From a virus: a DNA stretch of 64,000 nt. Positions 1 through 40,186 of the stretch are shown piece after piece. Under the pieces are notes generated by a model. It ran no database searches. It was not told the DNA's origin and saw only the letters and a list, made by a program, of their open reading frames with translations. How positions within the stretch are numbered: position 1 is the first letter of the stretch; every line of letters begins with the position of its first letter. The position numbers and the translations under genes are program-made. The DNA lies in IMG/VR virus record IMGVR_UViG_3300024346_000017, positions 49,109 through 113,108 of that record. The stretch is one strand, 5' to 3'.

Positions 1-2
1 CA

Positions 3-1142: not shown

Positions 1143-1156
1143 TTAAATAAAGGTTT

Positions 1157-1181
1157 TGGGGGATTCCTTAAAAATCCCCCA
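1157..1181 (+). terminator. Hairpin after fibre gene (possible terminator or processing site)
   Basis: tGGGGGATT-ccttaaa-AATCCCCCa; no clear U-tract. Confidence 0.5.
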
Positions 1182-1212
1182 CAATAAACAATTAGGGGAT
1201 ATGTGAACTTAA

Positions 1213-1575
1213 ATGGCAACAGTAGATAAGAACTTTAAAGTAAAGAATGGGTTAAATGTAGCAGGAACTGCAACGTTTGATTCTAATATCGTATTAGGAA
1301 CAGCCCCAATATCTTTTGATACAACAACAAAAAGGCTACAAGTCCAGATTGATGGATCTTGGCAGCCTATAGCTTTGTATTCAGAAATTCCAAATGAAAA
1401 CACTATGCTTTCATTTATGGATGTAGGTTTGGCGATTGATTACAATGGCCAGCCAACATATATTATTCAGGCAAATGGAGTTACACCATCAGGAACAAGC
1501 AAGTATGTTTCTGGAGGAGACGCTTCAACTACTGAGTTTGGAATGACCTTTGATTCAGGAGCATTAGTAGCATGA
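1213..1575 (+). CDS. Small virion/fibre-associated protein
   Basis: N-terminal KNFKVKNGL motif typical of phage structural proteins; lies between fibre genes. Confidence 0.6.
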   Translation: MATVDKNFKVKNGLNVAGTATFDSNIVLGTAPISFDTTTKRLQVQIDGSWQPIALYSEIPNENTMLSFMDVGLAIDYNGQPTYIIQANGVTPSGTSKYVSGGDASTTEFGMTFDSGALVA

Positions 1576-1597
1576 TGCTTAATTGTAATGGTTTAAA

Positions 1598-1606
1598 TGC
1601 TATAAT
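1598..1606 (+). promoter_or_regulatory. Extended -10 promoter TGCTATAAT
   Basis: TGn-TATAAT, intergenic, upstream of SD AGGGGT and ATG 1637. Confidence 0.65.
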
Positions 1607-1636
1607 TTCAATATATCAAATAAAAGGGGTGGCATA

Positions 1637-9384: not shown

Positions 9385-10497
9385 ATGAGCACAACAGGCA
9401 AGGGCTTTAGATACCCAGTATACACAGACACCCCAGACGTACCCAGAGACCTCGGATACCTTGCTGCTGACGTAGATGCCTACCTAGATGCTCATCCAGG
9501 CCCACAAGGGCCTTCAGGAACCCTATCAGTAGGCTCTGTAACTACAGTTAGCGCTTCTACTCCAGCATCTGTTGTTAATGTTGGAACAGCATCAGCAGCT
9601 ATATTAAATCTAACTTTACCAAGAGGTATTGATGGAATTATTGGTGGTCCAGGCCCTTCTAATGTATTAAGCATTGGAACAGTAGAGCAAGGCGGATCTG
9701 CCTCAGCAACAATTACTGGCACATCACCAACACAGACATTAAATTTAGTTTTGCCACAAGGGCCCGCTGGCCCAACTGGACCGCAGGGGCCGCAGGGCCC
9801 AACTACTTTAGCAGTAGGAACTACCACCACTAGTTTGCCTGGAACAAATGCATCAGTAACAAATACTGGAACTTCAACAGCAGCAGTATTTGCATTTACA
9901 ATTCCAAGAGGCGCAACTGGAGCAACTGGAGCAACAGGCCCGCAAGGAATTCCTGGATCAAGCGCAACAATAGATCCAGTACCAACTACAATATCTTTAA
10001 ATATCCCAACTACGGCAGGGTATGGAGTAAATTCAAACTGGTACCCACTTGCAAATAATTTATACTCTATTGGACAACCAATCGATGCTCCATCAGGAGT
10101 AACTTCAAATAGATTTTGGAAAACAATATATTCTAATACTGGAACAATAAATACATCTGATCAAAGATTAAAAACAGATGTTATTAATTCTGCTCTAGGA
10201 CTTGATTTTATAAATAATTTAAATCCAGTAAGCTATAAGTTTATTGAAGGCGGAAAAGAAGTCGTTGATGGAGATTTAGTTTCTATACCTGGATCAAGAA
10301 CGCATTACGGACTTATTGCACAAGAAGTAAAAGAGGTTTTAGATGCATCTGGCGTAGAAGATTTTGCTGGATGGGTTAAGATGGATGTATCACAAGAAGA
10401 TTCTATGCAAGGCCTAAGATACGATCAATTCATTGCACCACTTATTAAAGCAGTACAAGAGCTTACAGCGAGAGTTAAAGCCCTAGAAGAGATTTAA
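9385..10497 (+). CDS. Collagen-like tail fibre with C-terminal peptidase S74 (intramolecular chaperone)
   Basis: Gly-X-Y runs (GPAGPTGPQGPQGP; GATGATGATGPQGIPG) between repeated L.VG.VTT...ASV.N.GT units; TSDQRLKTD...GLIAQEV...LIKAVQEL. Confidence 0.85.
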   Translation: MSTTGKGFRYPVYTDTPDVPRDLGYLAADVDAYLDAHPGPQGPSGTLSVGSVTTVSASTPASVVNVGTASAAILNLTLPRGIDGIIGGPGPSNVLSIGTVEQGGSASATITGTSPTQTLNLVLPQGPAGPTGPQGPQGPTTLAVGTTTTSLPGTNASVTNTGTSTAAVFAFTIPRGATGATGATGPQGIPGSSATIDPVPTTISLNIPTTAGYGVNSNWYPLANNLYSIGQPIDAPSGVTSNRFWKTIYSNTGTINTSDQRLKTDVINSALGLDFINNLNPVSYKFIEGGKEVVDGDLVSIPGSRTHYGLIAQEVKEVLDASGVEDFAGWVKMDVSQEDSMQGLRYDQFIAPLIKAVQELTARVKALEEI

Positions 10498-20007: not shown

Positions 20008-20098
20008 TGTACCAAGAGGAAAAGAGCCTAGCCAGCTTAATTTAAAGTTTTACAGCAAGTCAATATATATATATATTTATTTAATGGAGGTTTTACAC

Positions 20099-20854
20099 AT
20101 GGCAACACAAGTCGCAGGTAACGCTAAGAATATTCTAGTTGGTGCTTCACCACTATTTATTTCTAACATTGACGTTACAACAACAGGATACCAGGACAAT
20201 GCAGAAGCAGGAGTACTGTTCCCAGCATTAGCAACAGGAGCAGCAATTCAGGTACCACTATTTAAGGCACCAACTTCATCAGCAGAAGGTGAGTCTTATA
20301 CAGATACACTTAACGCAATTGATGCAGAAGCATTTGCAGCTGGAGATCCAAAGAAATTCGCATATCGTAACGTAGGTTACACAAACAATGGTCTTCAGGT
20401 AACATACAACCCATCATACGGTTCAGTTACAGTAGATCAGCTTCTTGATACAGCAAAGCTATTCAAGGAGTCAATGGAAGTTATGATCGCAACAGAAATG
20501 GCTGAAGGTACACTTCAGAACATTCTTACAGTATTCGGTCAATCAGCAGGCACACTTACAGATGGAGCAACAACAGACAAGCTTGGTCTTGCTGGTGGTG
20601 CTCTAGGTGAGGCTCCAACAGAGCGTCAGCTAATCGCAGTAGGTCAGGCACCAACTTCTGGTTCAGGAGTAACAAAGGCAGAGCGTGTATACTATGCACG
20701 TCGTGTTCTTTCTGTACAACAGTCACAGTTCTCTTTGGCTCGTAACGCAGCATCAACATTCCCAGTCACATTCCGTTTGCTTCCAGACGGTTCTAAGCAG
20801 GGTCAGGAATATGGTTTTATTGTAGATCGTGTTCTTTCAAAGCTATCAGCATAA
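20099..20854 (+). CDS. Major tail (tube) protein
   Basis: NILVGA, VGYT..G....Y.P....V.VDQ, FPVTFRLLP; SD GGAGG before ATG 20099. Confidence 0.88.
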   Translation: MATQVAGNAKNILVGASPLFISNIDVTTTGYQDNAEAGVLFPALATGAAIQVPLFKAPTSSAEGESYTDTLNAIDAEAFAAGDPKKFAYRNVGYTNNGLQVTYNPSYGSVTVDQLLDTAKLFKESMEVMIATEMAEGTLQNILTVFGQSAGTLTDGATTDKLGLAGGALGEAPTERQLIAVGQAPTSGSGVTKAERVYYARRVLSVQQSQFSLARNAASTFPVTFRLLPDGSKQGQEYGFIVDRVLSKLSA

Positions 20855-20872
20855 TTAATACAATTAATTAAT

Positions 20873-20906
20873 AGAAGCCCCCCAAGAAATTGGGGGGTTT
20901 CTTATT
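20873..20906 (+). terminator. Intrinsic terminator after major tail gene
   Basis: agaagccccccaa-GAAA-ttggggggtttct-tatt. Confidence 0.85.
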
Positions 20907-20933
20907 GCCATTATATTTTACATATGATACAAT
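20905..20933 (+). promoter_or_regulatory. sigma70-type promoter
   Basis: TTGCCA-17-TACAAT with TG extension. Confidence 0.75.
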
Positions 20934-20963
20934 AATTAAGACGAGATCCTAGGAGGATTTAAA

Positions 20964-21296
20964 TTGGCAACAACAGTATATGATGTAGAAGAAATTCAGC
21001 TACAAAATGGCGCAACCGTAAAGCTAAAGCCTTTAACAATTAAAGAGCTTAGAAAGTTTATGTCAGCTATTGCAAAGACAGCAGAAGTTACTACAGAAGA
21101 TGAAACCCTAACAATTCTTATTGACGCTTGTGCAGTAGCACTAGAAAAGCAGCTACCAGAATTAGTAGCAGACAGAGACGCATTTGAAGACGTATTAGAT
21201 GTACCAACAATTAATCGTATCCTTGAAGTTTGCGGTGGCATTAAGATGGACGATCCAAATTTGCTAGCAGCAGCGGTTCTAGCTGGTCAGAACTAG
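20964..21296 (+). CDS. Tail assembly chaperone (G)
   Basis: SD AGGAGG plus TTG; between major tail and tape measure genes. Confidence 0.85.
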   Translation: MATTVYDVEEIQLQNGATVKLKPLTIKELRKFMSAIAKTAEVTTEDETLTILIDACAVALEKQLPELVADRDAFEDVLDVPTINRILEVCGGIKMDDPNLLAAAVLAGQN

Positions 21297-21622
21297 ATCT
21301 AGCTGCGTTAGAAGGAGAAGTATTTCTAATAGGAAACTATAAGAATTACGAGGAATTGGAAGACAATCTTTCAATGCCAGAATTGATTCAAACTTTTACA
21401 TCTATGCAAAAGTCAGAGTCAGAAAAAAGAAAATTCTTAGCTGCAATACAAGGTGTAGATCTTGAAGGTGGCCAAGAAGAAGAAACAAGTAGCTTTGAAG
21501 ATGTAAGAAGAAGAGCTCTTGGAATTACTGCAGACGCAACAGATGTTGTTTCACTACAGGGTCAGTTTGCATCAGAAGCAGGGTTTGGTATCGGAGCTGG
21601 CCTCGGATACAAAAAGGAGTAG
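21257..21622 (+). CDS. Tail assembly chaperone -1 frameshift extension (T part of GT)
   Basis: -1 frame open from 21245 to 21622; slippery A-AAT-TTG at 21257-21263; reads ...SWSELDLAALEGEVFLIGNYKNYEELEDNLSMPEL... Confidence 0.8.
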   Translation, partial: KFASSSGSSWSELDLAALEGEVFLIGNYKNYEELEDNLSMPELIQTFTSMQKSESEKRKFLAAIQGVDLEGGQEEETSSFEDVRRRALGITADATDVVSLQGQFASEAGFGIGAGLGYKKE

Positions 21623-21626
21623 GTAG

Positions 21627-24600
21627 TTGGCAGATCAAAATATAGTTACCAACATAACTGCGACGGCTAATTTTTCTAGCCTAACAGCGCAGTTACAAGC
21701 GGTGACCTCCCAACTTCTTAAGCTTCAAGCAACAACGATTGGTTTAAATAAAAATCTAACTAGCCAAGTTGGAGTCATGAATCGTCAGTTTGACGAAACC
21801 ATGCGCTCCACTGGCCAGTTTGCTAGACACTTTGTAACACTAACTTCAGACGTATCTAAGTTCGGTCAGAACCTAGATAGCGGAAGAATGAAGCTAAGCC
21901 AATATTTTCAAACATGGCAGGGACATACAAGAAAAACTAGCTCATTAGTTAAAGAGCTAGCCAAGCAGCAGGTAATGCTTGAGAACGCAGTAGTTCAGCC
22001 TCTCGGCAAAAATGCTCAAGGATTAATGCAATACAACGTTATGGTTCAATCTGGACTAGACGTTACAAAAAACAAATCAGCATTACTAAGACAAGAACTA
22101 GCCATCATGAACAAGGTGATGATGGATGGATCAAATCAACTTATTAACTGGGGTAAGAATACTCAGTGGGCTGGTAGACAGCTCACAGTAGGATTAACTG
22201 TCCCACTTGCTGCATTTGGAATGGCGGCAGCAAAAGCATTTAGAGAAGCAGATCAAGAGTTAGTAAGACTAACAAAAGTTTATGGCGGATTAACAGCAAC
22301 ATCAAGTGCTGATCTATTGCAGGTTAGAAAAGATGTAATTGCTGTATCAAGAGAATTAGCTTCTGGCTTAGGAGCAAACTTTAAAGAAACTATCGGTGTA
22401 GCAGCAGACATTGCTGCAACTGGAAAACAAGGCGCCGAACTTATAGATTCTACAAGACAGACTACAAGACTTGCTATACTCGGTGAAGTAGATAGACAAG
22501 ATGCCATGAAGGCTACATTAGCAATTCAAACAGCATTTAGTCAAAACACAATGGAGCTTGCTGAGTCTATTGACTTCCTCAACGCCGTTGAAAACCAGAC
22601 ATCTACAACACTAGAAGATTTAGTAACAGCAATTCCAAAAGCAGGACCAGTAGTAAAAGCTTTGGGTGGAGATGTACAAGATCTTGCACTTTATTTAACA
22701 GCAATGCGTGAAGGTGGAATTAATGCTTCAGAAGGAGCTAACGCACTTAAGTCTGCATTAGCATCTGTCATTAACCCAACAAAGGTTGCAAAAGAAATGT
22801 TTATGGGTCTTGGAATAGACTTAGCAGGAATTGTAGATAAAAATGCTGGAAACTTAACTGGCACAATTATGGCACTAAAGGACTCATTAGATTCGCTTGA
22901 GCCACTACAAAGAGCAAGAGCTATTGAGCAGCTATTTGGAAAGTTCCAGTTTGCTAGAATTAATGCATTGTTTGAAAACCTAGGTAAGCAGGGTAGCCAG
23001 ACACTTCAAGTTTTAGATTTGATGAAAGCTAGCACACAAGACTTAGCATCTATTTCTGAAAGGGAATTAAATGCTCTTACTGAATCTGCTTCTGGTAAAT
23101 ATAGAAGAGCACTTGAGTCAGTAAAAGCAGAGCTTGCTATTGTTGGAGAGCAATTCTTAAAAGTAGGAGCATTTGTATTAAATGCTATTGATGGAATTTT
23201 AAAGTTTATTGGAAACCTTCCAGGACCAATTAAAGCTGTACTAGGATTTATTGGCAGCCTTACGGCTATTGCTGGTCCTATAATCATGCTTACTGGTGTT
23301 CTGGCCAACTTCTTTGGATATATTATAAAGGGAGTATTAGCACTAAAAAATATTGGAAAGGGCGGAACAGGGTTTAAGTTATTAACCCCAGAATTAATGG
23401 CAGCAGCATCTGCTGCTGAAACCGTAGAACAATCATTCTATAGCGACACAAAAGCAGCGGCTACATTCTCTGATGCAGTTTTAACTCTAGCAGCATCATT
23501 TGAAAAACTAAAGCAAAGCGCAATGAGCTCTACAATTGCTACATCTAATAGCATGTCTACTGTTGCAGGAAACCCAGTTATGGGAGTTGGCGGAAGAATT
23601 GTAGATAAGAGCCACCCACTTGTAGGGCGGGCATACTCAAGAGATATGTCTCACCTTACACCAACAGGATCACTTACTCCAGAGCAAAGAGCAAGAGAAA
23701 CAATCTTTTCAACAGTTCCTGGACCTAAGCCAGTAAATCAAAGAATTTCAAATTCTCCACAGGTATATATGGATGGAGATCTTCCAAAGATACCAGGAAT
23801 AACATCTGTAAATGGAGTTTCAACTGGTGTAGTTGCAGCTGAAGCAGCCAAGTGGCACTCAATGACCGCAGCAATTGCTATGCAGTCAAAGGCTGAATTA
23901 GCAGTACTTAAAACTGAAATAGCAGCAACTGGAACAATTACAGCATCACTAGCAGATTCATATCAAGCACTTCTTCCTCAAATGACAAAGGTGACAACTT
24001 TAGCTGCACAAGAAACTGCAATGATAGTTCAACAACTACAGGCTGGCAAAATTACTGTTGAAGCAGCAAGAGCAAAGATATTTGCACTAAATGCTCAAGT
24101 TGAGGCTATGATAGCTCAGACAGCTACAGGCGTTGCAACTGCACAAGCAAGAACTTTAAGTTTAACTACAGTACCTTTAACAACTCAACCAGTAGTAAAT
24201 GCAGCTGGAAGATCAAATATGAAAGAGCTTTTCCATAAATCAGAAACCTCAAAGATGGTTGATGTAATTGCAAGAGCTTTGGGAGTTAGAACTTCTGGTG
24301 CTGGTTACAGTATAGAAACAACAAAACCTAGATTTAATACTGGTGGACAAATTGAATCTTTCGGAGCAAATAAAACACGGGTAAGTGGACCTGCATCAAT
24401 TTCATATGACGACAGAATGGGTAGCGTTCCACTAAATGGATATGTTCTTAATCAGCCAGCATCGTTGGATCCAAGAAATGCTCCACTAGTACAGGCCGCA
24501 GCCTCTACTCATCAAAATTCTGGCGGAAATATAACTGCTCTTCTTACACCACAAGAGACAGTGTTTGGTCCAGGAATACAAGAAAACCCAGAACTTTTTG

Positions 24601-27600
24601 CTGCAGTTGATGCAGCAAATAATGGAATTCCTTTTTCATCATTTATGGGTGGAGGAAATATTACATTATCAAGATCAAATTACGGCGCTATAAACCCAGC
24701 AGTAATGGCAAGAATTTTAGGCCAACTGTTTAGACGAAATCCAAAACTTTCAAAAGAAATTTTAAAGGGAAGAGATTTAAGACTTACTGGTGCAGAGGCA
24801 AGAGCATACCAAGAAGGAGTATTTGGTTCTGCACTTAAATCTTCATCCAGAGCATTAGGCAGAGAGTATTATTTTGTAGGAAATTGGGGAGGAAGACTAA
24901 GATCAAGTGTTAACTCTGCACTTGCACATGGTGCTGCTAGAAGATCTGATATTGTGAGCGATTTAATGCACAGTACATCGCAACAAGCACTTCCATCACT
25001 TACTAGATTCCTACAGGTCAATAAAGTTTCGCCAGATAAAATACAGCTAATCACAGATAGAGCTAGAGCAAATATCGTTTCTAGCTTATCTGGTACTGGA
25101 AAAATTGGAGAAGCTGAATGGTCAAGAATCCAACACAGAGAGTACCTTGCTGCAGCAAAAGAGCTTCGTTTAAGAAAAGAATATTTAGAGAGTCTAAATG
25201 TTCCAGGACAAAGAAGAGGACACTCAACAGATCCAGCAGCTAGAGGAATTCAAGCAGAAACTGCTTTAAATCCTTATGGCACAACAGACCTAGGAAAGCT
25301 TATATCTGCAAACGACCAAAATGGCACAAGGTTCATGGGTTCATATCGTACCTATGGAATAGAAAGAATTAATGGAGAGCCAACCGCATTAGCTCACATG
25401 ATGCCTAAATTTAATTCTGGTGGACGAATTGGCGGGATGATAAGGTCTGGTAAGTACAACTACGGAGTTATGGGCAATGTACTAAAGTCTTTAGCCATGA
25501 GAAGAATAGGCGCTGGCTTTGGACCAACAGGTGCACCAAAGCCTAGTACGTATGAGTCAGCCCCATGGGGAGTAAGCTCTCTATCAATTAAAGCAGCAGA
25601 CACACTATTTGCTGACACGGGTCTAAGAAAGAATTCACAAAAACTTCTATACGATAAGTTTGCTGCGGCACTAGCCCAAGAAAAACCTTACGGATATGTT
25701 AAGGGTGTTAATGGAGAATTAAGAAACGCCCTTGAGCCAGCATCATTAGATTCTGTTATAAGAAAAGCCGCAAGCGACCTTATGTCTGATAGAAGAGCTT
25801 ACATGCAGCTTTCTCCAATTGACAGAGACATACTTAGAAAGAAATATTTAAACTGGGAATCTAAAAAAGATACACCTATTACTGAATCTTTAAAACAAAG
25901 AATTTTTGGAAGTAGCACTCCAGGATTTATGGGTGGCGGTATTATTCGTCGTGGTAAAAATGCATACGGAGTAAAGGGTAACCCAGCTGCTCGTGCAGCT
26001 CAAGAAGCGGCAAAAAGAGCAAGAAGAGAAGCATTTGAACAACGTACAGGATCTGATCCAGAATATAGAGAAGGACCACTAACTGGTTCAAAAACAACAG
26101 TAGTTGGCAATGGTGGAGTAAGAACAAACGTTTATGGACTACAAGGATCACTTCCTTATGCTCCAGGATTAGGTTTACCATTCCAAAGAGCAAACATAGC
26201 AATAGACTCAATGTTTTCTTCTATTGGCAATTCACTTAAGACTGCATCCGACAGACTAATTGTTAAAGCTAGAATGTTGCCAGACCAAATTAAATCATCA
26301 ATGATGGCAGTTACTGGAAGTATTCAGCAATTAGGCACATCAATTAAAACAGTAGCTACAGGAGCTTCAGCTGCAATTGCTTCATCAGTAAGAAGTTTTG
26401 CATCTTCTTACAAGCCTGGTGGATCTGAAATATTAAAGTATGGCGCTCCTGGAGCATTTATTGGCACAAGAGAAGATCGTGGAGCAAGAATTACTGGATC
26501 ATTTAAGGCCAACGCTGCTTATTCAACTGCAGCAATGATGCATCCAATTCAATACTTAAAGACTAAGGGTATTGGAGCAGATCCAAACACACCTCTTGGC
26601 TCAGGCAACATGGGTAACATGGTTGGAATGATGGGCGGAATGGCAGCAGGAACTGCCATAGGAGGAAAGCTAGGTGGACAAAACGGTGCCATGATGGGCA
26701 GTATGGTTGGAATGATGGCTGGCCAATCTGTTATTAAGGGCGTAGGCGGAATGATTGCAAAACGTGCTGCAGCAAGTGCAGCAACAGCAGGATTAGCTTC
26801 CGCAGGATTTGGCGCAACAGCAGCAGCTGCTGCAGGCTTGGTTGCACCATTAGCAGCAGTAACAGCAGCAGGATATGCTGGATACAAAATGTGGAAGCAC
26901 TATAAAGAAGGACAAACCCTTAATATATCTACTTTTGGAATGACTGCAGAAGCAGCTAAAAAGGCTAACTTAAGATTTACAGACTTTGGCTCAAAGATAA
27001 AAGACACTATTCAAGATTCAAAAGACATGGCGGCTGCAAATAAACTCGTTTATGAAAGCATGAAGGATGGCGGAACTCCATTCCAAATGAGTATTGCGGA
27101 ATATAAAAAGCTTAAGAAGGAAGTCAAAGAAACTTTTGGAGAGCAGATAAAAGCTTTAGATAGACAGCCTTCAAATAAGGTACCAGATGCAGTTCGTAGA
27201 ATTAAAGAGCAGCTAATTGCTGCTGGCATGTCTGCAGACGAAGCAACTAAAAAGGTATTTACAATGCTTCAACTTTCAAATAAAAAAGATCAATCAATTA
27301 CTGCAACAATGGGTAACAATAGCTTTAAAAATATTACAGACCCACAAAGTGCTGCAGTTTCTGCAGTAACAAGTTTTGGCGCAGATACAAAAGATCAAGG
27401 AAACAAAGAAAAGGCAGCATCACTAAACACAGCTTTAATGGCAACTGAAACTGGAATAAATGATTTAATAGCTAAGAGAGAACGCCTTGTAGCAAAAGAT
27501 TTATCTGGAAAGACAAAGTCACTTACATACGCAGAAGCCGAAAAGATAATGATAGACAAGATCAACAAGTCTAAAGAGGCTGGCACAGTTATTACTCAGG

Positions 27601-30600
27601 GAACAATCGATGAGATGGCCAAAACAAATCCAGAAGTAAGAAAGATGATTAATGGATCTGATACTGTAGTAAGCGTATGGCAAAAGATTAGGTTAGAAGC
27701 ACAAGGATTTGAAGGCGACCTTTCTCAACTAAATGCTGCACAAACAAAACTTATTGCAGACTCGTTTGCAGCAATATCTGATGCTGTAGTTGCAAAAAAC
27801 AGAGGTGGAATATTAAAAGATCAGTACGCATCACTTGATAAACTAGAAAAGCAAATTAAGAATTATACAAAAGCTCTTAAGGGACAATCAGTTGCGGAAC
27901 AAATATCTGATAGAGATAGACTGAAAGCACTTAATAAACAAATAGAGGCTATAAATAAACTGGCGGAGTCAAGAAAGAAAGCTCTTGCTGCCGCACAAGA
28001 AGATGCAAACCTTGGAAGACAAATTGAAAAGGTTAGACTTGAGATACAAAATGCAGTTTCAGTCGGAGATACCGAAAAGGCACAAAGCTTAAGAATTGAT
28101 TTAGAGTCACTTACTTCACAGCAGCAAACAGATGCCCAGATGAAGGCAATAGATACTGCTGCGGAAGCCGCAACTAAGCCTTTAAAGGCTGCCATGGATG
28201 CTATTACAAATAAGCAAGAAAAGCTTGGTGACGCAGCTGCACTAGCAGGAGAAAGTTTAGATAAGTTAAAAGATAGATACGATAAGCAACAAGCAGCAAT
28301 TAAAAAAGTAAATGATTCTATGACTGCTTTATATGGAAATGCTGCAGCAGCAGGATTAACGGTTGAGGCTTACGCAAAGAAAAATAAAGAGGCATCTGCG
28401 GGATTTGTAGCCGCAATGGAAGCTGCCACAGGCGCAGCAATGCCAAAGTATAAAGAAAAAACATACTATAACGGCAGTATGTTGGTTACAGAAAAGGTTC
28501 CAATTGCTCCATATGAAAACGCACTAGAGCTTCTAGCAAAATCTGGTGCCGCTACAGGAGTAAACGAAGCACTTGCAAATAGCATTAAAGGTGGAGCAAC
28601 TCTAAAAGATGTTGTTGATGCAGTCAATGGTAAAAACGGCAAGCCTGCATTAAGAAAAGATATTGTAGTAAAAGGTGATTACTCTAACAGTAAAGAAGAT
28701 AAAGAGTTTGATGGCAAAAAAGTTAAAGTTCTAAATGCAGAAGCTCGTGATGCTATTAGAAAGAGACTTAAACTTGAGCCAGGAGAAACATTTATAGTTG
28801 ATGGACAAAAGTATAAGCAGAACACTACTGGTGGAACTCCAATTTGGGTGGGGCCAGCTCCACAAACACCTGCTTTACATGAAGGCGGAAAAATATCTGG
28901 TCCAGGTACCTCAACATCAGATTCAATTCCAGCAATGCTTTCAGATGGAGAATATGTATTTAGTGCAAAGGCTGTAGATGCAGCTGGTGGACCAGACGCC
29001 GTAGATTCTTTGCACAAAGCACTTAGAAGAGCAGATGGAGGACCAATTGGAAAACAGAAGCCTCAAAAACAACAGCTTCCATTTTTCCCATGGCGTCATG
29101 ATCTTCCAGATTACTGGAGTAATGGTGCACCAACGGGAAATCCACGTACTGGAAGATGGGGAGAATTAAGATACAATCCGTCTAAGGGTAAAGATATTTG
29201 GGGCGGAACAGAAATTCCAGGACTTAAGTTTACTGGAAAGACACCACAGCAATCAGACTACTGGCATCAGATGACTGAGCAGCCAAGTAAATCTCGTGGT
29301 CCAGGAATGGGTATAGACAAAGATCCAATGAGACTTGCAGGCTCTGGAGCATCTATGGGATTTTCTGGAAACGGAGCATATGGGTTCGGCCCACTATTGT
29401 TTGCAGAGGGTGGATCAGTAAAGAAACAAAATTGGTTCCAGAGATACGTTGCAAGCTTAACTAAATCAAGTGACTCATTGCCAGCATGGGCCAGAGACCC
29501 ACTTGGAGTTCAAGCCCTTTTAAGAAATATTGCAGGGCAAGGCAGAAAGGGAGATAATCTTTCATCTGCATTAATGCCGCTAAACTTTATGGGCGTAGGT
29601 AAACTTGGAAAAACAGCAGCATCTTCAGTGCCTAAAGTAGTAGGTTCAGTTTCCCATCTTACTCCAGAGATGAAATCCTTTAGCATGGCAGACATTGATG
29701 CTAAGGCAATTCAGGCTTTATCAAAGTTAGATCCTTCTTCAATAAAAATTCCAGAGACAGGAATTACTTTTAGCCCAAGCTCAGCAAGAGCTGCTCTTGA
29801 AGGATGGAAACAAACAGGAGATGCAGCTGGAGCCTCTCTTTGGGAAATTGTTCAGGCGCAAAGAGAAACATTACTAAAAGCTAAATATCCAAAAATTGAT
29901 TTTTCTGATGTAGCAAAATTTAACGAATACTATGCAAAAGAATTTTACGACTTGCTTCCAGACGAGGCTATTAAGTTATTTAAGGGTGTAAGAAGCACAG
30001 CAGGAGATGCATGGAGAACTGGTCAAAAAGATCTAGGTACTTATTTTTCAACTAATCCACATGTAGCCGCACTTTATAGCGCAATGATAGGAAAGGCAAA
30101 AATTGGCGAAGAGCTGCCAATGTTCAGTATTGATAAAAGAATATCCGAACTTAAAAATTTTCTAGGTGAAGGAGCAATAAGAAATGGCTCTGCACAAGGG
30201 AGCATGGAGTTCCCACAAGTATTGGGCGGCGAAGATCTATCAAGGATTTTGCCTAACATATATTCATTACCAGGACAAGTTTACGGACAGATGTTTGGTG
30301 CTACAGCAAAGTCATTAAAAGAGATAAAGAATTTATGGCCTTCTGGTTTTGCTCAAGGAGGCTACGTACCTAAATTTAAAAATGGAATTAACGTAGTCCC
30401 ACAGGATATGTTAGCAATGATTCACAAAAATGAATCTATAGTTCCAGCCAGTATGAACCCATTTAATCCAGATGCAGCAATGCCAAAATACAATTTTAAT
30501 AGGTCTTCATTTAATGTAAGAGGAGACGGAGCAATTGGAGCATCTTATACTGTTAATCAAAACATATACGCATCTGATGGAATGGATGTAGAGGCCCTAT

Positions 30601-30689
30601 CTAATATGATTGTTAAAAAGGCTGAAGTTGTTATTGGACAAAAGGCTAAGGTTAATGTTAAAATGGTTGGACAGGGGAAGAATATATAA
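21627..30689 (+). CDS. Tape measure protein (3020 aa) with accessory modules
   Basis: TP901-type minor-tail domain near N-terminus, hydrophobic segments, coiled coils, GPGTSTSDSIPAMLSDGEYV module; follows chaperone genes. Confidence 0.93.
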   Translation: MADQNIVTNITATANFSSLTAQLQAVTSQLLKLQATTIGLNKNLTSQVGVMNRQFDETMRSTGQFARHFVTLTSDVSKFGQNLDSGRMKLSQYFQTWQGHTRKTSSLVKELAKQQVMLENAVVQPLGKNAQGLMQYNVMVQSGLDVTKNKSALLRQELAIMNKVMMDGSNQLINWGKNTQWAGRQLTVGLTVPLAAFGMAAAKAFREADQELVRLTKVYGGLTATSSADLLQVRKDVIAVSRELASGLGANFKETIGVAADIAATGKQGAELIDSTRQTTRLAILGEVDRQDAMKATLAIQTAFSQNTMELAESIDFLNAVENQTSTTLEDLVTAIPKAGPVVKALGGDVQDLALYLTAMREGGINASEGANALKSALASVINPTKVAKEMFMGLGIDLAGIVDKNAGNLTGTIMALKDSLDSLEPLQRARAIEQLFGKFQFARINALFENLGKQGSQTLQVLDLMKASTQDLASISERELNALTESASGKYRRALESVKAELAIVGEQFLKVGAFVLNAIDGILKFIGNLPGPIKAVLGFIGSLTAIAGPIIMLTGVLANFFGYIIKGVLALKNIGKGGTGFKLLTPELMAAASAAETVEQSFYSDTKAAATFSDAVLTLAASFEKLKQSAMSSTIATSNSMSTVAGNPVMGVGGRIVDKSHPLVGRAYSRDMSHLTPTGSLTPEQRARETIFSTVPGPKPVNQRISNSPQVYMDGDLPKIPGITSVNGVSTGVVAAEAAKWHSMTAAIAMQSKAELAVLKTEIAATGTITASLADSYQALLPQMTKVTTLAAQETAMIVQQLQAGKITVEAARAKIFALNAQVEAMIAQTATGVATAQARTLSLTTVPLTTQPVVNAAGRSNMKELFHKSETSKMVDVIARALGVRTSGAGYSIETTKPRFNTGGQIESFGANKTRVSGPASISYDDRMGSVPLNGYVLNQPASLDPRNAPLVQAAASTHQNSGGNITALLTPQETVFGPGIQENPELFAAVDAANNGIPFSSFMGGGNITLSRSNYGAINPAVMARILGQLFRRNPKLSKEILKGRDLRLTGAEARAYQEGVFGSALKSSSRALGREYYFVGNWGGRLRSSVNSALAHGAARRSDIVSDLMHSTSQQALPSLTRFLQVNKVSPDKIQLITDRARANIVSSLSGTGKIGEAEWSRIQHREYLAAAKELRLRKEYLESLNVPGQRRGHSTDPAARGIQAETALNPYGTTDLGKLISANDQNGTRFMGSYRTYGIERINGEPTALAHMMPKFNSGGRIGGMIRSGKYNYGVMGNVLKSLAMRRIGAGFGPTGAPKPSTYESAPWGVSSLSIKAADTLFADTGLRKNSQKLLYDKFAAALAQEKPYGYVKGVNGELRNALEPASLDSVIRKAASDLMSDRRAYMQLSPIDRDILRKKYLNWESKKDTPITESLKQRIFGSSTPGFMGGGIIRRGKNAYGVKGNPAARAAQEAAKRARREAFEQRTGSDPEYREGPLTGSKTTVVGNGGVRTNVYGLQGSLPYAPGLGLPFQRANIAIDSMFSSIGNSLKTASDRLIVKARMLPDQIKSSMMAVTGSIQQLGTSIKTVATGASAAIASSVRSFASSYKPGGSEILKYGAPGAFIGTREDRGARITGSFKANAAYSTAAMMHPIQYLKTKGIGADPNTPLGSGNMGNMVGMMGGMAAGTAIGGKLGGQNGAMMGSMVGMMAGQSVIKGVGGMIAKRAAASAATAGLASAGFGATAAAAAGLVAPLAAVTAAGYAGYKMWKHYKEGQTLNISTFGMTAEAAKKANLRFTDFGSKIKDTIQDSKDMAAANKLVYESMKDGGTPFQMSIAEYKKLKKEVKETFGEQIKALDRQPSNKVPDAVRRIKEQLIAAGMSADEATKKVFTMLQLSNKKDQSITATMGNNSFKNITDPQSAAVSAVTSFGADTKDQGNKEKAASLNTALMATETGINDLIAKRERLVAKDLSGKTKSLTYAEAEKIMIDKINKSKEAGTVITQGTIDEMAKTNPEVRKMINGSDTVVSVWQKIRLEAQGFEGDLSQLNAAQTKLIADSFAAISDAVVAKNRGGILKDQYASLDKLEKQIKNYTKALKGQSVAEQISDRDRLKALNKQIEAINKLAESRKKALAAAQEDANLGRQIEKVRLEIQNAVSVGDTEKAQSLRIDLESLTSQQQTDAQMKAIDTAAEAATKPLKAAMDAITNKQEKLGDAAALAGESLDKLKDRYDKQQAAIKKVNDSMTALYGNAAAAGLTVEAYAKKNKEASAGFVAAMEAATGAAMPKYKEKTYYNGSMLVTEKVPIAPYENALELLAKSGAATGVNEALANSIKGGATLKDVVDAVNGKNGKPALRKDIVVKGDYSNSKEDKEFDGKKVKVLNAEARDAIRKRLKLEPGETFIVDGQKYKQNTTGGTPIWVGPAPQTPALHEGGKISGPGTSTSDSIPAMLSDGEYVFSAKAVDAAGGPDAVDSLHKALRRADGGPIGKQKPQKQQLPFFPWRHDLPDYWSNGAPTGNPRTGRWGELRYNPSKGKDIWGGTEIPGLKFTGKTPQQSDYWHQMTEQPSKSRGPGMGIDKDPMRLAGSGASMGFSGNGAYGFGPLLFAEGGSVKKQNWFQRYVASLTKSSDSLPAWARDPLGVQALLRNIAGQGRKGDNLSSALMPLNFMGVGKLGKTAASSVPKVVGSVSHLTPEMKSFSMADIDAKAIQALSKLDPSSIKIPETGITFSPSSARAALEGWKQTGDAAGASLWEIVQAQRETLLKAKYPKIDFSDVAKFNEYYAKEFYDLLPDEAIKLFKGVRSTAGDAWRTGQKDLGTYFSTNPHVAALYSAMIGKAKIGEELPMFSIDKRISELKNFLGEGAIRNGSAQGSMEFPQVLGGEDLSRILPNIYSLPGQVYGQMFGATAKSLKEIKNLWPSGFAQGGYVPKFKNGINVVPQDMLAMIHKNESIVPASMNPFNPDAAMPKYNFNRSSFNVRGDGAIGASYTVNQNIYASDGMDVEALSNMIVKKAEVVIGQKAKVNVKMVGQGKNI

Positions 30690-31141
30690 TGGCAACAGCT
30701 TTAATTTTACCAGCAGGAGCAGCTTTGTCTCTACAAGACGATGCTGGTGTTTTCCATTCATTAACTGAACATAACAGAAGTCCCATAACAGTAGAAACAC
30801 AAAGGTTCGAGAAGACTTCTAGAATGGCCAATGGAAGCCTTAGAAAGCTGTTTATAGCCGATAAGAAGACAGTCTCTACCTCCTGGAGCATGGTTCCCTC
30901 ATACAATAGTATGACCGTAGACGGATACTGGGGAGCAGAAGATATAAAAAACTTTTATTTAAGCACTCATGGACAAGGCACATTTAATGTAAAAATTGCA
31001 TATAATTCTACAAGAACAGAAACCTTCCTTGCCTCATTTACTTCATGTTCAGCAACTATGGTAAGAAGAAATGTAAAAGAAAAAGCGGCGGACACAGCAC
31101 AAGTATTTTGGGATTTATCTATTTCACTGGAAGAAGTATAA
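30689..31141 (+). CDS. Distal tail (Dit)-like protein
   Basis: RMANG.LRK..IA.K, WDLSISLEEV; directly after tape measure gene. Confidence 0.65.
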   Translation: MATALILPAGAALSLQDDAGVFHSLTEHNRSPITVETQRFEKTSRMANGSLRKLFIADKKTVSTSWSMVPSYNSMTVDGYWGAEDIKNFYLSTHGQGTFNVKIAYNSTRTETFLASFTSCSATMVRRNVKEKAADTAQVFWDLSISLEEV

Positions 31142-34100
31142 TGCAATACGTAAGCCCATCAACCTTAAGTTTAATTAATGAGTCTGCATCTTATTCAATG
31201 TCGGGCGGATGCTGGCTAGAATATAATATGAACGATTTGATTTTAGGCGCTAAAGTAAGAGGGCCAAATGGAACTGATGAAAATCCAGAAGGCACTCTTC
31301 AAATAACACAAACTGTTAATGGTAAAACATACTACCCATATAAAAAACTATTCCCCTTAACAAATATAATAGATCCAAGAAGACCTTCTTCTGCGGGCAT
31401 AAGCTATTTTTTATTAAACAAAATGGCACCAGTTGCTATACCAAAATATAATGTTTCAAAAGAACTTCCCTCCAGACTTTATTTTGCCAGTGCAAAGAAT
31501 CAGTATAAGTATTTCTTGGCTGGACCAGCAGAAAATCTTTCTCTGCCTAACTGTAATATTAATGTAGAGTACCCAGTATTAAAAACAGCTGTAGCAAATG
31601 TTATAGTTGTTAAATTTGAAACTTCATACTCAAAGCCAGTCAGCTGGTCAATTAAAATAAAAAACCATCAGGACGTAGAGGCGACTATATTTACAAATAC
31701 AGTTGTATCAAGTAGCAACACAGGAGTATTTGAACTTTATTACAATGGTGGTCTTTGGTCAAGTCCTTCCTCATGGTCAACTACAAAATTTACAACACCA
31801 TCAATTCCAGTAGATATTAAAAACATTACTGTAACAGTAAGCACAATTAATAAAGCAAACTCATACCTAGGCGTTATTGAAATAGGAGCAAAATATATAC
31901 AAGATGTTTCTGACAGAGTAATTTCTTTTCAGGCTTCAAAAATGTCTTCAGATAGTTCATCTGGAATTGTTCCAGTAGGATCAGTAACATCAAACGCATT
32001 ATCCTTATCCTTAGAAGGATTTGATAAAAAGGGAATAGAGTACGATAAAACTTACGCATTTAATAAGAACAATATTAATTTATATAAAAACGTTAAGATG
32101 ATTCCATTTAATAAAATAGGATCAGATATGATTTTTCAAGGAGTATTTTATATAGATTCTTTTAGTATATCTGAGTTTGGAGATATTGATATTCAGGGAC
32201 TAGACGGAGCCAAATTTTTACAAGAAATATTAGCTCCAGATATTGTAATTCAAAATGCTCCATCACAGGCAATCATTAGAAGGCTATTGGACGGCATAGG
32301 ATTTACTTCCTATAACTTTAATACATATGCAAAAGACAGTACAGACTTAACCGATACAGCTACCATAGTCCCGCTATTTTGGTATACAGAAGATACAAAG
32401 ACAGTCTGGGAACATATACAGGATTTATGTAGAGACACACAAATGATAGCTACATTTGATAACAACGACATACTTCAATTCTATCCTAGAGACTATCTGT
32501 TTGATAAAACAAGAGGAACTAACTTTAAGTTTAGAAGCGAAAAAAAATTATTAAATCTACCCAATATAATGTCTATGAGTAAAGAAACAGTGCCTTCAGT
32601 TAAGGCAGTTAAAGTGATTTATTCTCCAATAATAAGCACAAACTATTCTGGTTCTTCAGACAACCTTTACGTTTCTCCACCATCAGCAATTGGTGCAGCC
32701 GCCTTACAATCTACTTTATTAGCAACACCACCTGTTACAGTAGACGCCCCATTAGGAGTGGTTACTCTTGCACCAATAAGCGTGTACAGTTCTTTGGCCG
32801 ACACATCTTTTTATAATAAGTCTGGATATTTTTTAATAAATAATGAAATAATTAAATATGATGCAATTGAATTTCAATACGAGCCTGTTTCTGCACCGAA
32901 CACTCTTGTAAAAAAATGGATTACTTCTGACTCAGATATAGCAAAGTGGCTGGGAGAAAGTAAAATAGGTTCTTTTAAGTCAACGCTAAGGTATAGAATT
33001 AAAGAAAGAAATTCATTTAATGCTACTGGTAAAGGGGTTGGTGTTGGAGAAGAGCACAAGGTAGAGATTAATAAGTTAAAGGAGGAATGGTTTGGATCTA
33101 GGCTAAATCTTTCTGCAAAAACAAATGTTGGAGATCAATCAGTATTTACATTAAAGCAGACGGAAAAGCAGTCAGAGGGTCCAGTAGTAAAAGAAGTAGA
33201 AGTATCAAGATCACTACTTCACATTGTTACTCCCCCAGCATCTAAAGAATATTATTGTGCATCAATTACTCCAGATACCGTTAACATATCTACAGAAGAA
33301 TATTTTTCTGTAGGAACGGCATTGTTTTTTAAACTTGCAAAAGATAAGTTTGGAAGAGTAACTGGAGAGCAGGCAGTATCTGCTGCATTAGGAATAGGGC
33401 TTGACTCTAATAATTTAAATGGTTACATATTAAAAATTTCAACTTCACAAAATGTTGCAACCAAAGGACTAGAGTCTAAAGACGTTCAGCTGTGGAAGAT
33501 TGTAGACGGTAAAGAAACAAAAATTACGGATACGCAAAAGACTGAAGATAATTCAATTACTGGAGTATCTGGCGGAAAGTTTTATAGAATAGATGTAAAA
33601 GTATCTAAGGCCACAACTGGTAAAAAAATATTTAAAATTAAATTTAATAATCAACTCATTACGGCAACTGATGAATCCCCTATAGCAATAAACTCAAAGA
33701 TCTCACTTATTGGAATTGAAGGAGAGGCAGCCTTTGACTATGCATACTGCTCTTCTTTAACTAAAAATGAATTTAACTCTTCTACCTCATACGACAACTA
33801 CGGCTCATATATTTCAGCATCAAACGCCCTACAGAATTTGTTTGGAGATTTTGTTTTTACTGGATCTAATTCTTCTTCTAAGGCTCCATGGATAAAAGAG
33901 TTTGGGCCAGTAGCAAGAGAAATAAAAAAAATATCAACTAAATATTCAACAAGGCCAGGGCTTGTTAAATATCCTCAGATAATATTAAATCCAAACGTTA
34001 CCCTTATAGGGTATAACGCAAACTCTTTTGGAATAGAGGCCTACATACTAAATAACACTGGCGCATTTGTTGACATAGCAGATGGCGGAGAAAAAAGCTT

Positions 34101-34470
34101 TATTGTTGTTGGAGAAACAATAACAACGTTAGACCCATTTGAGTATATAGACCCATTACTTTCTTCAACTAAAAATGAAGAGCAGGTTGCCTTTGAGTCC
34201 ACATGGATACAAAAAGAAGAAGAGGCAAAAAAATTATCTGAATGGATGAGAACTCAGTGGTCAAATCAACAGATTGTTTTGACCCTTGATATTTTCCCTA
34301 ACCCGATACTTGAAATAGGAGATATTGTAGAAATATCTTATCCTAATAACTCAGTGTATTCTACAGAGGATACAGGCAAAACGGCAGGCAAATATATAGT
34401 TTTGGACATAGAGCAGGCCTATAGCTCTGACCCATCTACAAGAATAACATGTAGGTCGATTTATGTTTAA
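31141..34470 (+). CDS. Baseplate hub / tail tip protein
   Basis: TAATG coupling at 31139-31143 gives start 31141; WEHIQDLC....ATFDNNDILQF and C-terminal PNP.LEIGDIV.I hub motifs. Confidence 0.75.
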   Translation: MQYVSPSTLSLINESASYSMSGGCWLEYNMNDLILGAKVRGPNGTDENPEGTLQITQTVNGKTYYPYKKLFPLTNIIDPRRPSSAGISYFLLNKMAPVAIPKYNVSKELPSRLYFASAKNQYKYFLAGPAENLSLPNCNINVEYPVLKTAVANVIVVKFETSYSKPVSWSIKIKNHQDVEATIFTNTVVSSSNTGVFELYYNGGLWSSPSSWSTTKFTTPSIPVDIKNITVTVSTINKANSYLGVIEIGAKYIQDVSDRVISFQASKMSSDSSSGIVPVGSVTSNALSLSLEGFDKKGIEYDKTYAFNKNNINLYKNVKMIPFNKIGSDMIFQGVFYIDSFSISEFGDIDIQGLDGAKFLQEILAPDIVIQNAPSQAIIRRLLDGIGFTSYNFNTYAKDSTDLTDTATIVPLFWYTEDTKTVWEHIQDLCRDTQMIATFDNNDILQFYPRDYLFDKTRGTNFKFRSEKKLLNLPNIMSMSKETVPSVKAVKVIYSPIISTNYSGSSDNLYVSPPSAIGAAALQSTLLATPPVTVDAPLGVVTLAPISVYSSLADTSFYNKSGYFLINNEIIKYDAIEFQYEPVSAPNTLVKKWITSDSDIAKWLGESKIGSFKSTLRYRIKERNSFNATGKGVGVGEEHKVEINKLKEEWFGSRLNLSAKTNVGDQSVFTLKQTEKQSEGPVVKEVEVSRSLLHIVTPPASKEYYCASITPDTVNISTEEYFSVGTALFFKLAKDKFGRVTGEQAVSAALGIGLDSNNLNGYILKISTSQNVATKGLESKDVQLWKIVDGKETKITDTQKTEDNSITGVSGGKFYRIDVKVSKATTGKKIFKIKFNNQLITATDESPIAINSKISLIGIEGEAAFDYAYCSSLTKNEFNSSTSYDNYGSYISASNALQNLFGDFVFTGSNSSSKAPWIKEFGPVAREIKKISTKYSTRPGLVKYPQIILNPNVTLIGYNANSFGIEAYILNNTGAFVDIADGGEKSFIVVGETITTLDPFEYIDPLLSSTKNEEQVAFESTWIQKEEEAKKLSEWMRTQWSNQQIVLTLDIFPNPILEIGDIVEISYPNNSVYSTEDTGKTAGKYIVLDIEQAYSSDPSTRITCRSIYV

Positions 34471-39385: not shown

Positions 39386-40186
39386 ATGACAAACGATTTA
39401 AAGTGGATGCTATCTTCGGACCAGCAATTCCCTTATCAAGATGACAAGATGATCGAGCTTTGGTTTAAAGTAATGAAGTGGTTTAAGCCAGATGTCGTTG
39501 ACTACCTTGGTGATACAGATGATCAGGCATGCTATAGTAAGTATACAGAAGGCCGTTCAGCAGAATTTATGCAGCTTCACAAAAATGATAGCAGAGATTT
39601 AATAGTTCCAATGATGAGACATGAAGCAAAGGGCGCTAGAGATTTTTACGCAAAGACAAGAGAGATGCTTCCTAATGCACAATTATTTTCTGCTTTGGGT
39701 AACCACGACATTCGTATCTTTAACTATGTTGATGCCAAGCTCCCAGATTATATCAATGAAGTAACACCAGAAGCCTTGTGGTCCTTAGACTCACTTGGCT
39801 ACGAATATATTTATTATGACGAGCTTCCTAAGCGCCGTTTTGGAGACATTCACGTGCACCACGGACTTTCTATTGCAGCAACAGGATCGGCAAGAAAAGA
39901 CATGGAAGACATGCAGATCTCATTAATTCGTGGGCACTCTCACAGAATTGCTTCGCATATGGTAACATATGAACTTAGAAATAATGGAGAGGGAGAAACT
40001 CTTCGTGGATATGAGATTGGTCACATGTGTGACGAAAAGGGTCCAGGAATGAAGTATACTCAACACCATGATTGGCAAAAAGGATTTGCCGTTGCACATA
40101 TTGTTAATGATTATCCTCACATTCAAATGATCCATGTTTCACCAGACTACTCATGTGTCGTGGATGGAAAGTTCTTTCAAGTATGA
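39386..40186 (+). CDS. Calcineurin-like metallophosphoesterase
   Basis: SDQQ, LGD.DD, GNHD, HHG, GHSHR. Confidence 0.85.
   Translation: MTNDLKWMLSSDQQFPYQDDKMIELWFKVMKWFKPDVVDYLGDTDDQACYSKYTEGRSAEFMQLHKNDSRDLIVPMMRHEAKGARDFYAKTREMLPNAQLFSALGNHDIRIFNYVDAKLPDYINEVTPEALWSLDSLGYEYIYYDELPKRRFGDIHVHHGLSIAATGSARKDMEDMQISLIRGHSHRIASHMVTYELRNNGEGETLRGYEIGHMCDEKGPGMKYTQHHDWQKGFAVAHIVNDYPHIQMIHVSPDYSCVVDGKFFQV

Follow-up and report, generated by a model that had tools for sequence, protein, structure and literature searches.

A conserved connector joins exchangeable cassettes in the tape measure protein of an uncultured lake siphovirus

Tape measure gene and connector map

We analyzed a 64,000-nucleotide window (positions 49,109 to 113,108) of the 113-kb IMG/VR virus record IMGVR_UViG_3300024346_000017, and in particular its tape measure protein (TMP), the 3020-amino acid (aa) product of a single open reading frame (ORF). 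Beyond its canonical N-terminal region, this protein alternates between segments that we call cassettes (C1–C5) and copies of a short glycine-rich connector (J1–J8; Table 1), and comparison with related phages identifies these connectors as the joints of a modular system of cassette exchange.

The ORF encodes the genuine TMP of an uncultured lake siphovirus that is distant kin of Streptomyces phages of the BE cluster (Stanwilliamsviridae). This follows from its core, which matches PhageMin_Tail (PF10145; E = 1.5e-25, 90.7 bits against a curated cut-off of 33.2) and TIGR01760 (E = 2.2e-26, 92.8 bits against 28.8), together with a gene order that matches that of BE-cluster phages. The order runs portal, head protease, capsid protein, adaptor, Ig-domain major tail protein, 2 chaperone-position ORFs, TMP, a small ORF, and a 1141-aa minor tail protein, as annotated in Streptomyces phages Tomas and CeilingFan, with the TMP gene preceded by the tail-chaperone ORFs and followed by the distal tail/hub genes. 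PHROG TMP families match only aa 1–870, and scans of the whole protein against Pfam, NCBIfam, and PHROG annotate nothing outside the N-terminal TMP core. Specifically, the cores of BE-cluster TMPs are ~35% identical to aa 4–613. Megablast of the TMP gene against GenBank phages returned no match, and tblastn of aa 880–3020 (E 1e-5) against cultured GenBank phages returned no similarity—i.e. only the N-terminal core has cultured relatives.

A scan of IMG/VR recovered 27 related loci (cited below by L numbers), all of them uncultured, with uninterrupted TMP ORFs of 2367–3820 aa. A giant ORF with 2 hydrophobic segments and 2 tape-like stretches could be an artifact of assembly or gene calling, i.e. 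a chimeric contig or 2 fused TMP genes. This is extremely improbable, since the 27 contigs are independent, originate from different metagenomes, and keep the core parts in the same order, and cultured BE phages themselves have TMPs of 2094–2099 aa. In one relative (L015:8249-15349) the open frame of the TMP starts at the equivalent of aa 309, which points to a frameshift, a truncated gene, or an error in sequencing.

A sequence-only reading of this DNA had listed 8 related pentapeptides, and all 8 are found in frame 0 within the one ORF, at the nucleotides given there: FNTGG (aa 903), FMGGG (1006), FNSGG (1262), FMGGG (1434), LHEGG (2417), RADGG (2468), FAEGG (2592), and FAQGG (2908). The pattern F..GG is present 6 times in the protein, whereas 300 composition-preserving shuffles averaged 0.90 and never exceeded 5. 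The reported continuation (R/K)xxYG is confirmed for 3 of the motifs (SRSNYG, GKYNYG, and GKNAYG). The small modules with GE-type endings that had been described are also present, with the correction that "LLTPQETV" belongs to a ninth, unlisted motif (NSGG, aa 964–968), while FNTGG has its own "NGYV" version. In total, the window TMP holds at least 9 connectors. Self-BLAST of the protein for internal repeats gave no output.

Across the family, the connector consensus is ~[F/Y/L/R]-x-x-G-G-x-[V/I], which is broader than FxxGG, and V or I stands 2 residues past the GG in 135 of 224 connector contexts. Four kinds of continuation are found: type A, GPG..SDSIPA.LS.GE[YF]V, which is lambda-like; type A', P...Y.VGE.GPE.F.P; type B, which is short and ends in K..YG; and a His-rich kind with G-H-x-H. 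Connectors reading F-H-x-G-G-x-V-G-H-x-H are common in L021, L023, L024, L025, L027, and L028 (e.g. aa 1538–1552 of the L025 TMP), and from its sequence this His-rich continuation looks like a metal site.

Among the larger parts of the protein, the charged stretch of C3 (aa 1751–2410) has 29% K/R/D/E and is read here as a putative coiled coil. The C-terminal 70 aa are expected to anchor the protein to the tail-tip hub, a role assigned by comparison with the C-termini that have been resolved in the TMPs of lambda, T5, and Douge.

Table 1. Position of the TMP, its parts, and the neighboring tail genes in the window
Feature	Window position	Strand	TMP residues	Remarks
TMP ORF	21627..30689	+	1-3020	3020 aa, TTG start, single ORF
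Canonical TMP N-terminal region	21627..24296	+	1-890	PhageMin_Tail core 22353-22940
Hydrophobic segment of N-terminal region	23133-23345	+	503-573	
J1: FNTGG and GE-type hairpin variant (NGYV)	24333..24506	+	903-960	breakpoint aa 909 in L019, L027, L028
J1b: NSGG...TPQETV mini-module, ninth motif	24510..24581	+	962-985	breakpoint aa 980 in L021, L023
J2: FMGGG...SRSNYG, type B	24642..24686	+	1006-1020	breakpoints aa 1020-1028 in five relatives
Cassette C1	24687..25409	+	1021-1261	unrelated 530-640-aa blocks instead in L007, L009, L012
J3: FNSGG...GKYNYG, type B	25410..25469	+	1262-1281	breakpoints aa 1263-1286 in ten relatives
Cassette C2	25470..25925	+	1282-1433	alone in L021, L023, L025; replaced in L012, L015
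J4: FMGGG...GKNAYG, type B	25926..25979	+	1434-1451	extra 33-aa T5-like GE module of relatives, just upstream, absent here
Cassette C3, second tape-like stretch	25980..28874	+	1452-2416	kept with decaying identity in all relatives
C3 Gly/Ala/Met-rich hydrophobic segment	26547-26882	+		ends at aa 1752; charged ~660-aa segment follows
J5/J6: LHEGG...SDGEYV...RADGG, type A, lambda-like	28875..29042	+	2417-2472	breakpoints aa 2411-2420, 2471-2477
Cassette C4	29043..29399	+	2473-2591	Pro/Trp/Gly-rich, ~106-aa core; duplicated in L028
J7: FAEGG	29400..29414	+	2592-2596	breakpoints aa 2589-2598
Cassette C5	29415..30347	+	2597-2907	ART-like core ~29904-30341 (ART, ADP-ribosyltransferase)
J8: FAQGG...HKNESIV, terminal GE-type module	30348..30476	+	2908-2950	breakpoints aa 2900-2917, 2950
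Conserved C-terminal 70 aa	30477..30686	+		kept in nearly all relatives
Major tail protein with Ig domain	20084-20854	+		upstream of TMP; upstream block 20084..21622
Two small chaperone-position ORFs	20964-21296, 21356-21622	+		between major tail protein and TMP
Small tail ORF	30689-31141	+		directly downstream of TMP; downstream block 30689..34470
Minor tail/hub-like protein	31045-34470	+		1141 aa; downstream of small tail ORF

Cassette exchange among uncultured relatives

The sequence-only reading had proposed that the motifs are processing or swap points, and had suggested aligning relatives to see whether inserts are gained or lost at FxxGG. The swap-point reading holds for the relatives we analyzed. 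Breakpoints were defined as the internal ends of collinear BLASTP blocks between the window TMP and 18 nonredundant relatives, and their proximity to connectors was assessed with the 8 motifs listed beforehand, fixed before any comparison, using a zone from −10 to +25 aa. We find that 52 of 82 breakpoints are within this zone. When breakpoints are merged into distinct clusters, 12 of 31 are near a motif, compared with 4.2 expected (P ~7e-4). Pile-ups are seen at aa 909, 1020–1028, 1280–1286, 1427–1441, 2411–2420, 2471–2485, 2589–2598, and 2900–2917, and 2 more clusters, at aa 980 and 2950, coincide with the ends of GE-type modules. The edges of the relatives' segments that are absent from the window TMP (insert boundaries) also concentrate at connectors: 44 of 64 adjoin [FYLMHRWIV]xxGG, whereas 12.8 +/- 3.2 are expected and none of 5000 trials exceeded 25.

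Individual relatives illustrate each kind of change. For example, in L005 an extra 340 aa begin directly behind the YG of "...GKSNYG", at the position of J3, and unrelated stretches of 530–640 residues substitute for C1 in L007 and L009 and for C1 and C2 together in L012. In L018, an unrelated 263 aa takes the place of C5, between FAEGG and LANGG, while in L002 the whole stretch from LHEGG to FAQGG is deleted, and L028 carries C4 twice. Since relatives insert, delete, replace, and duplicate cassettes at the connectors, these serve as the joints at which modules are exchanged. The connector module itself also behaves as a cassette that is present or absent: a 33-aa A' GE module upstream of FMGGG/YE[IV]GG is found in L002 and L005 and is missing from the window TMP and L018.

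Connectors and the cleavage of other tape measure proteins

Using tblastn, we found the type A module in the TMPs of 169 GenBank phages, including those of Burkholderia, Gordonia, Mycobacterium, Pseudomonas, Arthrobacter, Pelagibacter, and others, and every listed match with an annotated feature is located in a tape measure or tail gene. The module is present twice in the 1699-aa TMP of mycobacteriophage Douge (PDB 8zdo), of which only residues 1658–1699 are ordered. The TMPs of the BE cluster (Tomas gp63 and CeilingFan gp60), which share gene order and core identity with the window TMP, also share part of its plan: in Tomas, a type A module is followed by ~315 aa and a terminal HKNE module (MNVGG...HKNEAV). 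They differ in being 2094–2099 aa long with 3 connectors, compared with 3020 aa and at least 9. The similar module that had been pointed out in lambda gpH is indeed there (FATGG at 733, HRGEFV, and YATGG at 778, in gpH from NC_001416), and the motifs of gpH 733–782 line up in order with LHEGG...SDGEYV...RADGG (aa 2417–2472); the likeness is at the level of motifs only (BLAST E = 1.2). Scans of the window TMP with Pfam and NCBIfam (E up to 1) found no lambda-type C-terminal family (Tape_meas_lam_C, PF09718/TIGR01541). Its occurrence in lambda gpH, T5 pb2, Douge, and the GenBank phages above marks the connector as an ancient and common building block of TMPs.

The T5 copy links the connector with cleavage. 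T5 pb2 (NC_005859; gene at L030:17122-20781, minus strand) reads ...FVPR-AEGG-MMYPGVSYQMGEHGTEVVTP..., where R is position 1127. Maturation cleavage of pb2 has been mapped "after R1127" by LC-ESI-TOF-MS, splitting pb2* from pb2C (Linares et al. 2023, PMC10038345), and pb2C remains in the tail tip, with a proposed expulsion into the periplasm (PMC10038345). Residues 1127–1159 of pb2 align without gaps with the A' modules of the relatives (39–42% identity, E 5e-4 to 7e-3 in a set of 20 TMPs), and all of these alignments begin at R1127. On this alignment, the only TMP cleavage that has been mapped experimentally coincides with the first residue of a connector, in its RAEGG copy; we found nothing useful in the literature on further sites of TMP cleavage that have been mapped. 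RADGG, FAEGG, and FAQGG of the window TMP have the same T5-like form, [R/F]-A-x-G-G.

For lambda, Hendrix and Casjens reportedly described in 1974 the processing of gpH to gpH* plus gpHC. The cut removes ~14 kDa within a Gly-rich region, with both site and protease unknown (PMC12617516). A T5-like cut of gpH, computed at F733|A734, would yield 79.8 + 12.5 kDa, which is consistent with the reported cut and is no proof of it. Because the T5 cut lies on a connector and the lambda cut lies in the same neighborhood, the connectors are most likely cleavage sites or exposed hinges; by analogy with these 2 phages, a role as processing points is a plausible and supported one. Given the T5 cut, the motif may be of general use as a cleavage point for tail-borne cargo.

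Could the motifs be nothing more than Gly-rich linkers, where indels between domains are tolerated and the likeness to T5 and lambda is a coincidence? The motif is short and Gly-rich, the window TMP has 9.6% Gly, and only some of its 31 xxGG are junctions. Such an explanation would have to account for the excess of F..GG over shuffled sequences (6 vs 0.9), for conserved flanks with an aromatic residue or Arg at −3 and V/I at +2, for a gapless 33-aa alignment with T5 that begins at the cleavage residue, and for the conservation of the type A module across phages of Actinobacteria, Proteobacteria, and others. As such, we find it very improbable.

Two mechanisms of cleavage were considered and set aside. 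A self-cleaving, S24/LexA-like reading of "SDSIPAMLSDGEYV" was dropped because the lambda copy has no Ser and the module is too short, and adenain/ULP-like cleavage of the "xGG|x" type was abandoned because the mapped cut of T5 is before the GG, not after it. Separately, the published "metallopeptidase motif" of pb2C probably lies in the same stretch as the GE-type module (pb2 aa 1127–1159), and the muralytic assignment of this motif may deserve a second look.

Cassette contents, tail length, and the best explanation

Among the cassettes of the window TMP, C5 is the candidate enzyme. A set of 1.84 billion representative proteins contains only 32 relatives of this cassette, many of them in long, TMP-sized proteins. 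Its AF2 model, built from a 16-row alignment, reaches a pLDDT of ~80 over the core. A Foldseek search of this model against PDB places ART toxins and PARPs in the top rows (TreX, ExoS, PARP16, and the pertussis and diphtheria toxins; E 0.19–5), and a VIA search, which is independent of Foldseek, peaks at Z 4.1 with diphtheria toxin; almost every row that covers the domain is an ART. A protein atlas places C5 nearest to clusters of ART-PolyVal, PARP, and exotoxin A (score 0.84), the 10 best named clusters all belonging to the ART clan, and an ART-PolyVal match is found in 1 of 16 C5 homologs (E = 0.072). Candidate catalytic positions are K2786 (in LFKG, on a strand), Y2806/Y2817 (Y-x10-Y; YFSTN...Y), and E2861; among homologs, K2786 and Y2806 are conserved in at least 90% and E2861 is invariant. 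From these model comparisons, C5 is probably an ART-fold domain, with a putative ART activity. Other searches were negative: a Pfam scan of the window C5 (E up to 10) found no family, the ART-PolyVal model PF18760 found no match in the phage genome, and C5 had no match in BFVD at E 0.001 or better, with a few ART and polyvalent rows amid noise. The C5 profile retrieved only the Douge TMP connector from PDB sequences, and the C-terminal 620 aa of the window TMP gave only chance matches to them. One C5 homolog (P0013, attributed from its sequence) has a weak match to GNAT acetyltransferases (Pfam E = 0.0025) and may represent another enzymatic cassette of the family.

Overall, evidence that the cassettes are cargo is mixed. 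C1 and C2 have no stand-alone homologs, only contig fragments, and their AF2 model is helical with low confidence (mean pLDDT 42). They may be simply tape. C4 had no informative match in the protein atlas, and family scans found no cell-wall hydrolase signature in any cassette of the window TMP. The proposal of the sequence-only reading that several effectors are carried, for which it had suggested a fold search of each module, is thus borne out in part: there is one weakly ART-like cassette here and a CHAP+LysM cassette in one relative, while C1 and C2 look like helical tape.

This relative is L019, whose TMP has CHAP (2438–2519, E = 7.7e-6) and LysM (2584–2632, E = 5e-12) domains between FANGG at 2388 and FAQGG at 2635. 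A Pfam scan of the TMPs of 9 relatives added only this pair of domains. The segment (L019:12287-13180, TMP aa 2338–2635) is a clear peptidoglycan-hydrolase cassette that has no counterpart in the window TMP. Further cassettes of relatives are known by their motifs. A zincin-type HExxH (HEFGH) is present in a 309–380-aa cassette of L027 (14723-15649) and L028, with weak matches to Peptidase_M3 in Pfam (E = 0.022) and Dcp in PDB (E = 0.25); its role may be that of an effector or of a peptidase for processing. A 340-aa cassette (L005:11189-12208) is common to 8 relatives (L005, L007, L009, L020, L021, L023, L024, and L025) and has a Gly-rich loop, the Lys of "FVKP", "GDKDLGAGNL", and "ADVG", in an order that recalls protein-kinase-like folds; neither Pfam nor the PDB sequences gave a match for it. 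A second ART-like cassette, distinct from C5 and with an "LFHGG" and a "YGGQMFAAEDY" that look canonical, is located at L024:13689-15089 and has C-terminal homologs in L019, L020, L027, and L028; its comparison with PDB sequences was uninformative.

Tail length bears on how much of the protein acts as a ruler. It had been argued that a TMP of this size implies a tail near 450 nm, and that part of it is therefore probably cargo. The argument fails as evidence of cargo because the full TMP of a cultured relative matches its tail length: the tail of Streptomyces phage CeilingFan measures 346–365 nm (PMC13191466), and the whole of its 2099-aa TMP, at 0.165–0.17 nm per residue, is needed to account for it. 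Very long tails are normal in the BE group.

A purely structural role for the connector fits these measurements. Connectors would then be hinges or beta-hairpins for TMP packing, chaperone binding, or register, the 3020 aa would measure a tail of ~450–520 nm with at most 1 cut near the C-terminus, and the cassettes would be mostly tape that tunes length. In addition to the CeilingFan tail, this agrees with the helical or tape-like nature of C1, C2, and C3, with the failure to find a protease in the tail-gene neighborhood or by MPTase-PolyVal in the genome, and with solved tails, where the ordered TMP comprises extreme C-termini only. By contrast, globular enzyme cassettes (CHAP+LysM in L019 and the ART-like C5) would be unable to measure length as a linear ruler does, the one TMP cleavage that has been mapped sits on a connector, and close relatives differ by hundreds of residues, which would require tails that differ by at least 75 nm between near-identical phages. 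We regard a purely structural connector as possible and, on balance, unlikely.

The explanation that we favor, with reasonable though not strong confidence, is that the TMP continues after its 890-aa core as a series of cassettes linked by a conserved connector, which serves as the joint of exchange and likely as a cleavage site or hinge, and that some of the cassettes are enzymes. In this mechanism, the cassettes would be joined by connectors that continue either into a hairpin of the GE type (types A and A') or into a brief K..YG segment (type B), and that most likely act as maturation cleavage sites or exposed hinges. After tail assembly, one or more C-terminal cassettes would detach from the ruler part and leave the tail before the DNA does. 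Some cassettes would be enzymes, i.e. the ART-like one here and, in relatives, CHAP+LysM and, at the level of motifs only, an HExxH peptidase-like one, while others probably do no more than lengthen the tail, as ordinary helical tape.

Several observations weigh against this explanation. T5 and lambda show one C-terminal cut each and no serial processing, and the T5 site that has been mapped belongs to type A', a module that the window TMP lacks at the orthologous place; the window TMP does keep xxGG parts and other GE variants. We found no dedicated protease near the tail genes of the window, and the MPTase-PolyVal model had no match in the phage genome; cleavage of the window TMP or its close relatives is a prediction made by analogy. 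In C5, K2786 occupies the place of the ART His or Arg, and the ART comparisons stay at Z of 4.1 or less and Foldseek E of 0.19 or more, with no Pfam match for the window copy. The model of C1 and C2 is helical and of low confidence. Cultured kin have tails that equal or exceed the length expected from the full TMP, so measuring length may be all that the cassettes do. Lastly, the connectors are Gly-rich, and indels are best tolerated in linkers anyway.

A bolder version of the cassette-string explanation can be formulated, in which the connector is a general maturation signal of siphovirus TMPs, cut after its first residue, and this lineage has multiplied the signal into an injected effector polyprotein. 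The lambda cut would fall at F733|A734, and the interchangeable effectors, which would enter the host before the DNA, would be ART-like, a peptidoglycan hydrolase and, from motifs only, possibly peptidase- and kinase-like. We put this version forward tentatively and consider it doubtful.

Parts of this arrangement are already known: TMPs with lytic motifs (TM4 and T5), single C-terminal processing (lambda and T5), and injected multidomain polyvalent proteins. T5 pb2 resembles the window TMP in having an xxGG and GE-type connector near its C-terminus, and differs in having 1 connector and 1 cut, compared with at least 9 connectors and many interchangeable cassettes. Lambda gpH is similar in its FATGG...GEFV...YATGG, set against LHEGG...GEYV...RADGG in the window TMP, and is cut in a Gly-rich region ~12–14 kDa from its C-terminus; unlike the window TMP, it has no cassettes. 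Cell-wall hydrolase motifs are embedded in the TMPs of mycobacteriophage TM4 (PMC1796659) and T5 (pb2), which, like L019 with its CHAP+LysM, have enzymatic domains inside the TMP that are active during infection; those TMPs have 1 or 2 fixed motifs, and neither a conserved flanking connector nor cassette exchange has been described for them. Polyvalent proteins combine many effector-type domains, including ART and zincin peptidase, in a single virion-delivered polypeptide for which proteolytic release has been proposed (Iyer et al. 2017, PMC5512222), in a paper that does not mention tape measure proteins. In the window phage, the chassis is instead a TMP, the joints are a defined motif, and there is 1 candidate enzyme, the HExxH cassette being present only in relatives L027 and L028. 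Three points appear to be new—i.e. that a defined connector delimits exchangeable TMP cassettes, that this connector coincides with the mapped cleavage residue of T5 and with the region of the unmapped lambda cut, and that one lineage has multiplied it at least 9-fold.

The lambda TMP has been known to be processed since 1974, while its cut site and protease are still unknown (PMC12617516), and the link with the connector gives a testable prediction, F733|A734. The connector also suggests a general rule for placing foreign domains in a TMP. If the cassettes are released, phage effectors such as an ART would have, in addition to the capsid, a second delivery route through the tail lumen, and the connector could be used as a natural point of insertion or cleavage for engineering cargo into siphovirus tails.

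Two other genes of the window are worth recording. A metallo-phosphoesterase gene (phrog_221, E = 9e-54) is located at 39386-40186 (+), just past the tail gene block, and a 370-aa protein with similarity to the C-terminus of tail fibers or tail spikes is encoded at 9385-10497 (+), upstream of the portal gene and apart from the other tail genes.

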